Assembly (NCBI GenBank): GCA_040218735.1
Contig: JAVJQW010000018.1
Coordinates: 256,001 to 320,000 of the forward strand
Source: Deltaproteobacteria bacterium
GTDB lineage: Bacteria; Myxococcota; Kuafuiibacteriia; Kuafuiibacteriales; Kuafuiibacteriaceae
Length of the DNA stretch: 64,000 nucleotides
Direction of reading: 5' to 3'
Positions 55,548 through 60,049 of the stretch are shown in pieces. The translations under genes were made by a program, and so were the position numbers. The stretch's first letter is position 1; every line of letters starts with the position of its first letter. The notes under the pieces are model-generated. The model was not told where the DNA came from. It worked only from the letters and a program-made list of their open reading frames with translations, and searched no databases.

Positions 55548-55556
55548 TGGTATCAT
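55548..55556 (+). promoter_or_regulatory. Extended -10 promoter, probably leaderless, for the arginase operon
   Basis: TGgTATCAT 7 nt upstream of the GTG start at 55564; no SD. Confidence 0.5.
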
Positions 55557-55563
55557 TCTTTAC

Positions 55564-56790
55564 GTGCGGTTCGTCTACAACGGGACCTGCGAGATCGCTC
55601 CGGGCCCCGCTGACCGCTACCTCGTTCGCTCCGCGGAGCTCGGTCGCGAGCTGGAAGCAACGGGGTACCAAGTCGGGTTGCTGCGTGCGTTCGAGAACCC
55701 CGCGGCGATCGACGACGTGCTGAAGAAGTTCCCGTTCTCGCGTGAGGCTTCGTCGGCGTTCCTCACCGAGGCGGTGGACGCGGGCTTCCTCCTTTCGGTC
55801 GACGAAGAGGGCCGAACGCTCCTCCCGCAGACGCGGCGCGCGACGCCGACGATCTTCGGTGCGCCGCCGCACGACCCCACGAACCCCGCGGCGTTCACGG
55901 TGTTGGGGATCCCGTTCGACGGCAACACGACGGGCTTCGCGGGGGCGCGCTTCGGTCCGTCGGCGATCCGTGCGGCCGCGGAGACGTGTCGTTACACGCT
56001 GGACCCGCTGACGCTCGCGCCGATGGGGTTCGAGGATCTGGGGAGCGGTCGACGGCTGCTTCAGGGCGTGACACTCGCGGACGGCGGCGACGTCATGGTG
56101 ACCGCCGGGGAGCCGGCGGACGACCTGTACGATCGCATCACGCGGGCAGTGCGCGATCTGCTGAAGGCCGGGACGATTCCGGTCGTCGTGGGCGGCGACC
56201 ACTCGATCACCTATCCGGTGCTGCGTGCGTTCTCGGAGGACAGCCTCCGGATCATCCACTTCGACGCGCACACGGATCTCGGCGACATCCCCACGACGGG
56301 CCTGCACCACGGCAACGTGTTTTCGTTCGTGCTCGATCGGATCGAGACGGTGGTGCACATCCACCAGATCGGCCTGCGCGGCATCATGGGCGCGGGCGCG
56401 GTGGAGGACATCGAGCGGACGGATCGCATCGGTGTGGATCGGATGCGCGCGTTGTTCGATCGGTTGCCGTCGATGATCCCGGACGACGGGCCTTGTTACC
56501 TGTCGATCGACATCGACGTAGTCGACCCGTCGTTTGCCCCGTCGACCGGTACGCCGGTCGCCGGCGGTTTGTTCCCGCACGAGCTGAAGACACTCGTGCA
56601 CGCGATCTGTTCGACCCACGAGGTCGTCGGAATGGACCTCGTCGAGGTCGGTCATGCGGATGCGCCGGACGATGGTACGGCGCACGTCGCGCTGGAGACG
56701 ATCCTCACCGCGTGTGATGGGATCGTCCGTTCGATGCAGATGGCGCTCGAGGATGAGCGTTCATCCAACCAGGAGGAGGAATCGAGATGA
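55564..56790 (+). CDS. Arginase/agmatinase (ureohydrolase) family enzyme with an N-terminal RRE/PqqD-like extension
   Basis: GIPFD..GARFGPSAIR, GGDHS, HFDAHTD, HHGN, SIDIDVVDP, TGTPVAGG, DLVEV; about 85 extra N-terminal aa ending FLTEAVDAGFL. Confidence 0.9.
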   Translation: MRFVYNGTCEIAPGPADRYLVRSAELGRELEATGYQVGLLRAFENPAAIDDVLKKFPFSREASSAFLTEAVDAGFLLSVDEEGRTLLPQTRRATPTIFGAPPHDPTNPAAFTVLGIPFDGNTTGFAGARFGPSAIRAAAETCRYTLDPLTLAPMGFEDLGSGRRLLQGVTLADGGDVMVTAGEPADDLYDRITRAVRDLLKAGTIPVVVGGDHSITYPVLRAFSEDSLRIIHFDAHTDLGDIPTTGLHHGNVFSFVLDRIETVVHIHQIGLRGIMGAGAVEDIERTDRIGVDRMRALFDRLPSMIPDDGPCYLSIDIDVVDPSFAPSTGTPVAGGLFPHELKTLVHAICSTHEVVGMDLVEVGHADAPDDGTAHVALETILTACDGIVRSMQMALEDERSSNQEEESR

Positions 56791-57317
56791 GTGAAGACAA
56801 CACGAACAACGCGCTGGGCATGCCGGTCGCGGTCGCGAAGCAGCAGCTGCGCGACGATCCCCACACGCACGAGATCGCCAAGGGTCTCGGTGTCGATGTG
56901 GAGGAGTACATCGACCAGGTCATCTACTTCGCCCAGAACCCGAACGTGGACCCCGAGATGCACGTGCTCCCCGACGAGGAGCTCGCGGAAGCCGGCGCGA
57001 ACGTCGCGACGGAGGGTGAGGTGCTCGGGTGGTTCAAGGGCGTCGCGTCGGGCGAGATCGACATCACCGAGCCGCACAAGAAGGAGCGCAAGACCGAGTA
57101 CACGAAGCAGAAGCTCGACTCGGAAACGATGCGCGCCGCGGCCGGCTTCCACGTGGAGAAGGCCGCCCCGCAGCAGGCGGCGCCGCGGGGTGAGATTCGC
57201 GCGAGCGGTCGCGGCGGCGCGGCGCTGCGCGAGCAGCTGCTCCAGCAGCAGCGCAACACCCAGATGATGCGCGACCGTCGCTCCGGCCGACAGCCGGCGG
57301 CGAAGAAGGAAGCCTGA
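56787..57317 (+). CDS. Hypothetical protein (acidic N-half, Arg/Gln-rich C-tail)
   Basis: Strong [16 protein letters not shown] overlap with the arginase, typical codon usage. Confidence 0.8.
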   Translation: MSEDNTNNALGMPVAVAKQQLRDDPHTHEIAKGLGVDVEEYIDQVIYFAQNPNVDPEMHVLPDEELAEAGANVATEGEVLGWFKGVASGEIDITEPHKKERKTEYTKQKLDSETMRAAAGFHVEKAAPQQAAPRGEIRASGRGGAALREQLLQQQRNTQMMRDRRSGRQPAAKKEA

Positions 57318-57321
57318 GGAC

Positions 57322-58152: not shown

Positions 58153-58554
58153 CTACTGGCGGAAGAACGACCGCGCGTGTTGCTGCGCGACGATGTTCAA
58201 CAAGTTCTGCGCGCCGAGGGGGTTCTGCATCCCCGCCGACCCGGCGAACACGTTGACGAGCTGCGAGAGCCCCGCCGAGCCGCCGGCCATCTGCGCGAGC
58301 GCGCCGATACCTCCCAGCGGCCCCATGGCCAGCAGCGACAGCGGGTTGTTCAAGAACTGACCCGCGAACTGCTTGATGACGTTGCCGAAGGGCAACTTGT
58401 CGAGCACCGGACCGACGAATTCGAGCGCCTTGTTGGCGAGCGTAGACAGCGGTTTGGTGACGACACCGATCGCATCCTTTGCGAAGTTGGTGACGCGGCG
58501 AACGACCCGGCTGACCCGCCGGAACGCTCGGCCGATACGACGACCTAGACCCAT
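58153..58554 (-). CDS. Small protein with Arg-rich amphipathic N-terminus and Gly/Ala/Leu-rich helical body
   Basis: GGAGG RBS upstream of the ATG; MGLGRRIGRAFRRVSRVVRRVTNF... Confidence 0.8.
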   Translation of the reverse strand: MGLGRRIGRAFRRVSRVVRRVTNFAKDAIGVVTKPLSTLANKALEFVGPVLDKLPFGNVIKQFAGQFLNNPLSLLAMGPLGGIGALAQMAGGSAGLSQLVNVFAGSAGMQNPLGAQNLLNIVAQQHARSFFRQ

Positions 58555-58625
58555 ATCCTAATGAACCTCCAGTCCGTGTATCGGCTGACAACCACTGAAC
58601 GGTGCGTCTAAAAAGAGCCTAAAGT

Positions 58626-58649
58626 CCCTGAATTAGTGGGATTTCAGGG
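58626..58649. promoter_or_regulatory. Palindromic candidate operator between the small gene and the P450
   Basis: CCCTGAA-N10-TTCAGGG in an AT-richer divergent intergenic region. Confidence 0.4.
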
Positions 58650-58684
58650 TTGGATGTCGTACATGTGTGACTGACGGGGAGGCG

Positions 58685-60049
58685 ATGATGAGCGAGACGA
58701 TTCCGACGTTTCCGGGGGTGCCGGTGCTCGGCGCGCTCCCCGCGGTGCGTCGCGACATGCTGCGTACGTTCGTGCGTGCGGCGAAGCTCGGCGACGTCGT
58801 GCACCTGCCGTTCCCCGGACGCCAGGGGTACCTCATCGTGCACCCCGATCTGATCAAACACGTCCTCGTCGACAATCATAAGAACTACGGCAAGGGCACG
58901 CGCGGCTACCGGATGCTTCGGCTCGCGTTGGGCGAGGGCCTCGTCACGAGTGAGGGGGAGTTCTGGCGGAGGCAGCGTCGCATCGCGCAGCCCGCGTTTC
59001 ATCACCAGCGCATCGCGGCGTTCGCGGAGACGATGGTGACGTCGACGGAGCGGATGCTCGACCAGTGGGCGCAGCACGATTCGACGAAGGTGATCGACAT
59101 CGACGCCGAGATGATGCGCGTGACGTTGGAGATCGTCGGGCTCTGTCTGATGAGCACGGATCTCGCGGACGAGTCCGGCGTGGTGGGGGGCGCGATCACC
59201 GAGGTCCTCGAGGGGACGGTGAAGCGTGTGCAGAACCCGCTGACGCTCCCGCTCGAGGTACCCACGCCAGGGAACCGTCGCTTCGTCCGTGCGCTGAGTC
59301 GGTTGGACGAGGTGGTCTACGGGATCATTCGTGAGCGCCAGGGGATGCAGTCGCCGCCTCAGGATCTCCTCACGATGTTCATGGAGGCGGTCGACGAGGA
59401 GACCGGCGAGCGCATGAACGAAAAACACCTGCGCGATGAGGTGCTCACGATGGTGTCCGCGGGGCACGAGACCACCGCGAATGCGCTGACGTGGACGTTC
59501 TACCTGCTGTCGCAGCACGCCGAGGAGGCGGAGAAGCTGCGCGCCGAGCTCGCCGCCGTGCTCGGCGGCCGCTCGCCGACGCTCGAAGATCTCCCGAACC
59601 TCCCGTACACCGACGCGGTCGTGAAGGAGTCGATGCGGCTCCTCCCGCCGGTCTGGATGATCGCGCGCTCGGTGATCGACGACGACGTCATCGGCGGCCA
59701 CACGATCCCGGCCGGCTCGATGGTCTTCCTCAACACCTACGTCACCCACCGCGACCCGCGCTTCTTCGAGGCCCCGGAGCGCTTCATGCCGGAGCGCTTC
59801 GCGCGCGGCGATGTCGACCGCCAGCCGAAGTACGCCTACTTCCCCTTCGCGGGCGGTCCGCGGGTGTGCATCGGCAACAGCTTCGCGGCGATGGAGGCGA
59901 AGCTCCTGCTCGCGACGATCGCCCAACGCTACGCACCGCGCCTCGCGCCGGGCCACGACGTCACGCCGATCCCCACGGTGACGCTGCGTCCCAAGTACGG
60001 GATGCGGATGTTCCTGGAGCGCGTGGACCGGTCGAAGGCCGCGGCCTGA
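58685..60049 (+). CDS. Cytochrome P450
   Basis: AGHETT (I helix), ESMR (ExxR), PERF, FAGGPRVCIG heme motif; GGGGAGG RBS. Confidence 0.96.
   Translation: MMSETIPTFPGVPVLGALPAVRRDMLRTFVRAAKLGDVVHLPFPGRQGYLIVHPDLIKHVLVDNHKNYGKGTRGYRMLRLALGEGLVTSEGEFWRRQRRIAQPAFHHQRIAAFAETMVTSTERMLDQWAQHDSTKVIDIDAEMMRVTLEIVGLCLMSTDLADESGVVGGAITEVLEGTVKRVQNPLTLPLEVPTPGNRRFVRALSRLDEVVYGIIRERQGMQSPPQDLLTMFMEAVDEETGERMNEKHLRDEVLTMVSAGHETTANALTWTFYLLSQHAEEAEKLRAELAAVLGGRSPTLEDLPNLPYTDAVVKESMRLLPPVWMIARSVIDDDVIGGHTIPAGSMVFLNTYVTHRDPRFFEAPERFMPERFARGDVDRQPKYAYFPFAGGPRVCIGNSFAAMEAKLLLATIAQRYAPRLAPGHDVTPIPTVTLRPKYGMRMFLERVDRSKAAA

Follow-up and report, generated by a model that had tools for sequence, protein, structure and literature searches.

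The window analyzed here, a 64,000-nucleotide (nt) stretch of contig JAVJQW010000018.1 from a Deltaproteobacteria bacterium of the phylum Myxococcota, encodes an arginase-family enzyme, P0001, whose N-terminal domain has the predicted fold of a RiPP recognition element (RRE; RiPP, a peptide made by ribosomes and then modified post-translationally). Genes for two small proteins, P2 and P4, and for a JmjC oxygenase lie beside it. On balance, we consider it probable that P0001 is an RRE-tethered protein arginase of the PF00491 family that forms ornithine in P4, and perhaps in the tail of P2, and that the JmjC enzyme then hydroxylates the product, as in biphenomycin biosynthesis. Peptide arginases are a known kind of enzyme; the fusion to an RRE and the uncharacterized family of candidate substrates are new.

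The arginase gene (55564-56790, + strand, 408 amino acids (aa)) opens a series of three coupled genes. Its stop codon overlaps the start of P2 (P0002; 56787-57317, +, 176 aa) in an ATGA at 56787-56790, with AGGAGG just upstream, and 4 nt separate the P2 stop from the GTG start of P0003 (57322-58086, +, 254 aa), a minimal JmjC (JmjC_2/cupin) oxygenase. These + strand genes converge on the gene for P4 (P0004; 58153-58554, -, 133 aa), whose product begins with an amphipathic helix carrying an all-Arg polar face. Codons 1-25 of P4 (58480-58554, -), with 8 Arg and 0 Lys, are the candidate substrate segment. Divergent from P4 is a cytochrome P450 gene (P0005; 58667-60049, +, 460 aa), and a perfect 7-nt inverted repeat, CCCTGAA N10 TTCAGGG (58626-58632 and 58643-58649), lies between the two. 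The initial annotation of this DNA had described a coupled three-gene operon (a ureohydrolase with an extra N-terminal domain, a 176-aa protein and a JmjC oxygenase) converging on a 133-aa gene with 8 Arg in its first 20 residues, and had placed a palindrome in the divergent region shared with the P450. The stop/start overlap, the 4-nt gap, the translation of P4 and the located repeat bear this description out, and PF00491 covers residues 110-382 of P0001, leaving about 105 N-terminal residues unassigned by Pfam. The extended -10 that had also been proposed for the operon stands as a motif, TGGTATCAT (55548-55556, +), 8 nt before the GTG start of P0001; because a consensus scan of 55300-60200 found no full sigma-70-type promoter, it counts as a sequence motif and not as a promoter. 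The gene arrangement itself is beyond chance, since the arginase-P2-P4 trio recurs in other genera.

The N-terminal domain of P0001 (residues 1-100; 55564-55863, +) is predicted to adopt an RRE-like (PqqD-like) winged-helix fold. It was modeled confidently (AF2 pLDDT 84.5 alone and about 90 within the full-length model), and the predicted structure runs through four strands, three helices and one strand. Foldseek returned TigE as the best match (E 4.4e-4, TMq 0.68), with further matches to MccB, TbiB1 with its leader peptide, LynD, ThcOx, TruD, McbBCD (McbB), MadB, TbtB and CteB, and TMq values of 0.5-0.68 for the RRE matches. A VIA-align structure comparison over 48,161 representative chains gave Z scores of 12.5 for TigE, 10.8 for MibB, 10.8 for MccB, 9.1 for the PbtF 'RRE domain', 8.6 for TbiB1, 8.4 for a lasso-peptide B1 protein, 8.1 for NisB and 7.0 for PqqD, with ordinary DNA-binding winged helices around Z 5. 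We take most of these top structural matches to be RRE-bearing, and the entry titles say so for PbtF, TbiB1 and B1. The model agrees with the fold of solved RREs, a three-stranded sheet combined with a three-helix winged helix. With RRE-bearing RiPP enzymes ranked first in two independent aligners, the modeled N-domain is of the RiPP-recognition-element type.

The catalytic part of P0001 is a PF00491 arginase domain (residues 110-382; 204.6 bits against a Pfam gathering cut-off of 22). Its Mn-ligand motifs GGDH(S), DAHTD and SIDIDVVDP, which supply the six His/Asp ligands (patterns GGDH, DxHxD and DxDxxD), are intact and align with those of the agmatinase 1wog; across 16 family members they vary little or not at all, the copy in genome G006 excepted. 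The closest structure by sequence is 1wog (E 4.6e-33), followed by 3nip, 1gq6 and 3nio, and a Foldseek search with the full-length model found 1wog at E 1.1e-22. The nearest relatives of the catalytic part are agmatinase, guanidinopropionase, guanidinobutyrase and proclavaminate amidinohydrolase. Over residues ~105-390 P0001 is nearest to the SpeB and guanidino-acid hydrolase structures (1wog, 3nip, 3nio, 1gq6), with identical metal ligands, but it differs from agmatinases in its separate clade, its extra RRE-like domain, its non-polyamine gene context and its scores, which lie under both curated NCBIfam agmatinase cut-offs (148.4 against 174.3 for TIGR01230 and 163.8 against 302 for NF002564). 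A Pfam scan of P0001 at E<=0.1 gives PF00491 alone, without the PF12640 family of OspR-type arginases, and OspR-type motifs are absent from the translated protein.

The fusion of these two domains is distinct, rare and monophyletic. In a sample of 401 Myxococcota genomes, which underlies all phylum counts given here, a profile of the N-domain matches 12 genomes; by family, it was found in 8 of the 19 genomes of the window's own family, in 2 of 11 and 1 of 2 genomes of two further families, and in none of the 172 genomes of the largest one. Run on 1.84 billion representative proteins, the same profile produced 19 matches at E<=0.001, 12 of them at E<=1e-10; of these 19, 10 were scanned (lengths 379-447 aa), and PF00491 lies behind the N-domain in all 10. 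A word-based homologue search with the N-domain found 3 close relatives only, and a locus search with the full-length arginase alignment gave, among the matches listed, no RRE-arginase locus beyond two known ones. When catalytic domains were placed in a maximum-likelihood tree, those of 14 fusions came together as a single group (support 97/96), set off by a branch of 1.25 substitutions per site from 28 ordinary family members. The latter were 27 of the 79 loci L002-L080, taken at every third one, and an agmatinase-like gene from genome G001.

Comparison of gene neighborhoods links the fusion to the two small proteins. Twenty-nine loci from relatives, the window's own genome (G000) and the wider phylum were gathered, and their open reading frames (ORFs) were searched with profiles for the N-domain, P2 and P4. 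P2 lies immediately downstream of the RRE-arginase gene in 9 of 14 loci (the window, G016, G010, G002, G009, G001, G045, G090 and G138) and about 5 kb away in one further locus (G008). P4 is present in 8 of the 10 RRE-arginase loci that hold P2; the G138 contig ends inside P2. Metagenome contigs were also fetched by Arg-rich P4 patterns, and all three confirmed loci read arginase, P2, P4, one with a complete RRE-arginase and two with only the 3' end of the arginase gene at the contig edge. The co-occurrence check across Myxococcota put forward in the initial annotation is thereby answered positively for the arginase and both small proteins, which are syntenic across genera, and negatively for a conserved five-gene unit, with the JmjC gene in 3 of the 401 genomes and the P450 gene beside P4 in 3 of the 8 RRE-arginase loci that hold P4.

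P2 and P4 are an older, widespread Myxococcota gene pair. The P2 profile matches 153 of the 401 genomes, many of which hold 2-3 copies. Among them are 135 of the 172 genomes of the largest family, where the N-domain count is 0/172. The P4 profile retrieves 172 protein clusters; among the 120 listed, every organism name given is myxobacterial or 'Deltaproteobacteria bacterium', and the labels ('hypothetical protein' and, in three cases, 'phage-related protein') are not informative. P2 consists of a conserved acidic N-terminal part of ~95 residues, with 20 Asp and Glu, and a C-terminal part of 81 residues with 11 Arg, 8 Lys and the motif ALRxQLLxQQR. In complete arginase loci these tails measure 72-141 residues and hold 4-12 Arg; in other loci, those tails that exist measure 47-60 residues and hold 1-5 Arg. 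P4 continues from its N-terminal helix into a Gly/Ala/Leu-rich body with a conserved C-terminal N....A...A motif, and it is conserved along its whole 130 residues, C-terminus included. For this reason, P4 is better seen as a functional protein than as a leader and core.

The composition of the P4 helix tracks the presence of the enzyme. All 18 aligned P4 N-termini are amphipathic (helical hydrophobic moment 0.45-0.99, a value that at most 1.5% of shuffles reach), with a moment of 0.98 for residues 2-19 of the window P4. In each of the 8 loci that have P4 together with an RRE-arginase, the first 25 residues contain 5-8 Arg but no more than 0-3 Lys; where the enzyme is absent, 12 of 13 proteins (12 loci) contain 0-1 Arg and the cationic residue is mostly Lys. 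For 3 of these 13 the automatic N-terminus was misplaced, and the true N-termini are likewise Arg-poor. Expressed as the share of Arg in Arg plus Lys, the helix reaches 63-100% in arginase loci versus at most 33% elsewhere, locus L096 excepted. Outside the helix, the Arg-rich P4 proteins use mostly Lys: the window P4 has 8 Arg and 0 Lys in its helix and 2 Arg and 5 Lys in the remainder. The Arg counts of the 120 P4 relatives listed fall into two modes (0-1 in 96 proteins, 3-8 in 24), and the Arg/Lys contrast recurs in three families that carry the RRE-arginase.

Database searches give few leads to the nature of the two proteins. NCBIfam has no match for the P2 or P4 of the window; Pfam has none for P4 and, for P2, a sub-threshold Sigma70_r3 alone (E 0.05). 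Across 18 P4 proteins, weak Pfam leads are Antimicrobial24 in 1 (E 3.7e-4) and Dicistro_VP4 in 3 (best E 0.0085), and across 10 P2 proteins Sigma70_r3 appears in 1 (E 0.043). The ESM Atlas offered no usable relatives or folds for P4 (own model pLDDT 0.47) or P2 (pLDDT 0.58). A complex prediction for P0001 with P4 scored 0.01 against a mark of 0.32, a result that speaks neither way. P4 looks like a membrane-active amphipathic protein, and P2, with its acidic domain, could plausibly bind or chaperone the cationic P4 as its partner.

P0003 is assigned to JmjC_2 (68.2 bits against a Pfam cut-off of 22), and its HxD...H iron triad aligns with that of NO66. It shares the JmjC_2 core and the triad with YcfD/RoxA, NO66 and MINA53, but differs from them in consisting of the catalytic core alone: its alignments cover only that core (about residues 96-226), versus chains of 373-466 aa. 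Because the protein has 254 aa and its matches are limited to the core, it lacks the C-terminal dimerization and winged-helix domains. Full-length orthologues occur in 3 of the 401 genomes (G000, G001 and G006), and each adjoins an RRE-arginase gene; a locus search with the JmjC protein gave 5 loci, of which only the G001 contig is close. P0005 is assigned to the p450 family by Pfam and matches the NCBIfam RiPP P450 model ApyO below threshold (180 bits versus 525). The P450 gene adjoins P4 in the window, G001 and G008 only, divergently in the window and G001 and convergently in G008. JmjC and P450 are lineage-specific add-ons, and the P450 may be an accessory enzyme rather than a conserved partner; it may add a step or be unrelated.

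A mechanism can be outlined from these features, although for the binding events, the substrate and the roles of the JmjC enzyme, P2 and the P450 it is stated as what we infer. A manganese ureohydrolase of the PF00491 family would have acquired an N-terminal peptide-binding domain of the RRE type. The RRE-like domain would dock part of a small protein whose gene is adjacent, and the catalytic domain would hydrolyze the guanidino groups of Arg residues in the docked protein, yielding ornithine and urea. The prime candidate substrate would be the N-terminal amphipathic helix of P4, in which all 8 cationic residues are Arg, with the Arg/Lys-rich tail of P2 as a second candidate. By analogy with known pathways, P0003 would most likely hydroxylate the new ornithine, or else arginine. 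The idea of an arginase acting on peptide-bound Arg, already present in the initial annotation, gains from the RRE fold, the synteny with both small proteins and the Arg-rich P4, while the Arg-to-ornithine chemistry within it keeps the standing of a proposal. A bolder version, which we regard as possible but doubtful, is that the RRE-tethered arginase turns the whole Arg face of the P4 helix into poly-ornithine, which the JmjC enzyme in this genus converts to hydroxy-ornithine. The product would be a genetically encoded, ornithine-rich, membrane-active protein that resembles cationic antimicrobial peptides and could serve as a weapon in predation or competition, with the acidic P2 as its chaperone or immunity partner.

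Several observations weigh against this assignment of P0001 as a protein arginase. The support for both chemistry and binding is computational, drawn from sequences and models. The RRE fold is a variant of the winged helix, and non-RiPP winged helices reach Z 5-8. The N-domain has the same fold as PqqD, TbiB1, the MccB N-domain, NisB/MibB and LynD, but differs in giving no PqqD sequence match: no Pfam family, PqqD (PF05402) included, reaches E<=0.01 for residues 1-110 of P0001. Four of the 14 RRE-arginase genes (G000 contig 21, its counterpart in G001, G013 and G006) have neither P2 nor P4 nearby, so these enzymes must also act on something else or serve in small-molecule chemistry. In G002 the arginase and P2 are present, but no P4 is detectable in the 19.9-kb locus, where an amidase follows instead. 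Conversely, the P2/P4 pair is common without an RRE-arginase, and the enzyme is therefore dispensable for the core function of the pair. The P4 of G003 (L096) carries 5 Arg and 6 Lys in its helix, yet no N-domain was found in that genome. The Arg/Lys contrast is also partly confounded by phylogeny, since most of the arginase-free loci come from one family.

The alternative that draws most on these points is that P0001 is a small-molecule ureohydrolase (an agmatinase, a guanidino-acid hydrolase or a proclavaminate-amidinohydrolase-like enzyme) whose winged helix serves regulation, oligomerization or DNA binding, and whose small neighbors are not substrates. The closest sequences and structures are indeed the agmatinase 1wog and guanidino-compound hydrolases, and the 4 of 14 family members without P2 and P4 neighbors fit a metabolic enzyme. 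The window's own genome has three PF00491 genes, of which two are RRE-fused and the third is not strong (72 bits), so redundancy cannot rule out a metabolic role. We nevertheless judge this alternative unlikely: P0001 scores below both curated agmatinase cut-offs and sits on a long branch separate from ordinary PF00491 members, its extra domain is nearest to peptide-binding RREs and not to DNA-binding winged helices, its gene is translationally coupled to P2, and the specific use of Arg in the neighboring P4 helix goes with the presence of the enzyme. Plain polyamine metabolism near mtnA, which the initial annotation had kept as its alternative, is likewise weakened by the scores and by synteny, as none of the 9 related loci compared contains a homologue of mtnA or gatB.

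Two other explanations keep a peptide arginase and change its setting. In one, which seems distinctly improbable, P2 rather than P4 is the substrate, its ~95-residue domain being a long leader, as in NHLP/Nif11 precursors, and its Arg-rich tail the core. P2 does lie directly downstream of the arginase gene and overlap it in 9 of 14 loci, G002 keeps the arginase and P2 without P4, and the P2 tails are longer and more Arg-rich in complete arginase loci. That Arg enrichment is graded and mixed with Lys, however, whereas the contrast in the P4 helix is far sharper. The P2 tail also ends in a motif conserved family-wide, arginase-free genomes included, which makes it unlike a hypervariable core. 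In the other, to which we give the least credence, all five genes form a dedicated RiPP cluster in which the arginase, JmjC and P450 jointly modify a precursor, and cleavage and export of this precursor yield a small peptide natural product. The JmjC orthologues beside an RRE-arginase in 3 of 3 cases, a P450 adjoining P4 in two different arrangements and the sub-threshold ApyO match agree with this, but the JmjC gene is limited to 3 of 401 genomes, and of the 8 loci with RRE-arginase and P4, 3 have the P450. In the loci compared, no protease and no exporter or transporter is conserved beside the arginase-P2-P4 trio, which also counts against the preferred reading; with P4 conserved over its full length and no conserved leader protease or exporter, the term RiPP in the strict sense is not supported for the locus. 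An RRE-tethered arginase acting on P4 remains the reading that we prefer.

Known systems offer partial precedents for such an enzyme. Passages in PMC12703449 place the OspR-type peptide arginases (OspR, FlmR, OhkR and BipC/PbsE) in PF12640/UPF0489. OspR had been cited as the model for this locus, and the precedent holds for the proposed reaction, peptidyl-Arg to peptidyl-ornithine and urea, for membership of the binuclear-Mn ureohydrolase superfamily and, if a small protein here is modified as proposed, for a gene beside a ribosomal substrate; it does not hold for the family, since OspR belongs to PF12640 and P0001 to PF00491. A proposal described in part of PMC10028609 has OspR binding its leader in a dimer cleft, whereas P0001 carries a fused RRE-like domain. 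KgrD of enteropeptin biosynthesis is given as a PF00491 peptide arginase in sections of PMC12703449 and PMC10028609, and by description it shares with P0001 the Pfam family and, as proposed for P0001, action on peptide-bound Arg. It differs in that its short sactipeptide precursor must first receive a thiomorpholine from a radical SAM enzyme, whereas the candidate substrate here is a protein of ~130 aa that has as many as 8 Arg on a single face of its helix; none of the scanned genes between 53.2 and 62.5 kb is a radical SAM gene. In biphenomycin biosynthesis, as described in PMC12707348 and PMC12257519, a peptide arginase acts before a JmjC enzyme, for which the ornithine so formed is a substrate for hydroxylation and Arg is not (BipC/BipG, PbsE/PbsQ, BpmC/BpmG). 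The likeness lies in arginase and JmjC genes sharing one operon; the differences, again by description, are a UPF0489-type arginase, a short FRF-motif precursor, and MNIO and B12-rSAM partners.

Full-text literature searches, whose coverage stops short of survey supplements such as Tables S2-S5 of PMC12703449, returned no report of an RRE-arginase fusion, and the words 'arginase', 'agmatinase' and 'ureohydrolase' have 0 occurrences in the structure-based RRE survey PMC12710340. Peptide arginases are new tools for placing ornithine in ribosomal peptides, and nearly all known ones belong to PF12640. If the proposed function is correct, a classical PF00491 arginase with a built-in recognition domain would represent a second, modular way to aim this chemistry. 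The candidate substrate family would offer up to eight target Arg on one helix face, and the widespread, uncharacterized P2/P4 pair, whose products look membrane-active, would become open to functional study for the first time. In the bolder version, P0001 would be the first RRE-fused PF00491 arginase, and the locus would provide the first case of multi-site Arg-to-ornithine editing in which the target is a full-length protein and not the short core of a RiPP.

Further copies of the fusion were seen outside the trio. The window's own genome has a second RRE-arginase paralogue on contig 21 (94346-95488; locus L114:7296-8495), ~41% identical to P0001 and without P2 or P4 nearby, in a context that recurs in G001 (L119). 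Its neighbors are a HEAT-repeat protein, a 1021-aa PPC-domain protein, a MarR-type regulator and a polyprenyl synthetase. In G006 (L118:7806-10920), a JmjC orthologue (E 6e-65) comes directly after an RRE-arginase with degenerate metal motifs; DAHTD reads DTRPD, the DP..APSTGTPV stretch has a deletion, and P2 and P4 are missing. The G006 locus looks like a decayed remnant of a window-type operon.

P2/P4-like pairs likewise occur in other settings. An arginase-free pair with a short, 85-aa P2 is present in the window's own genome (contig 67, 63004-63701; L129:9026-9701), and its counterpart in G001 (L099) adjoins an ordinary RRE-less arginase-family gene and has 1 Arg in its P4 helix. In the arginase-free majority, P4 is nearly Arg-free (0-1 Arg and 10-17 Lys in ~138 aa), although the genomes have ~70% G+C. 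The pairs of the large P2-rich family (L097, L100, L103, L108 and L109) share a conserved neighborhood that includes, judged by eye, response-regulator/cyclase-like, pseudopilin-like (136-aa) and tandem universal-stress-like proteins and a protein of ~205 aa. Myxococcaceae-type genomes carry a paralogous module (L101:6775-8187, L104, L107 and L110) in which a P2-like protein precedes a divergent P4-like protein of ~145 aa (MGGIGK...); in L101 and L104 a conserved protein of ~130 aa comes next, with no Pfam match and an acyltransferase fold by impression only. The P450 of G008 (L092:6279-9296) lies in a 1005-aa frame whose first ~560 residues have no Pfam match, reflecting either a fusion or an over-called start.

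The surrounding genes were called between 53 and 63 kb from ORF structure and third-position G+C in DNA of ~68% G+C. Two ExbD-like genes (53196-53711 and 53708-54214) precede an S9/DLH-type hydrolase gene that ends at 55503. The listed 617-aa ORF at 53650-55503 is over-extended and overlaps both ExbD-like genes; the real gene there is probably that hydrolase, starting near 54.2 kb and encoding an N-terminal hydrophobic segment, and its position next to the arginase gene is conserved in G001 only. An mtnA-like and a gatB-like gene were also called within 53-63 kb, on the - strand. Two terminator-like sites were found, both within genes and equal in number to chance expectation, and a hairpin in the convergent gap (58080-58160) is no better than shuffles (z -1.5). 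Metatranscriptome library X22 contains contigs of 89-310 nt, at 90-99% identity, that touch parts of all five genes; these are not taken as evidence of transcription, because DNA carry-over is possible and contigs reveal neither strand nor ends. Metagenome runs of several studies, on sponges, bioflocs, aquaculture and biofilms, contain DNA near-identical to 55400-60100 of the window; the source organism seems to live in water or with a host, unlike a classical soil myxobacterium. One 30-kb metagenome contig covers 55400-60051 with 51 differences.

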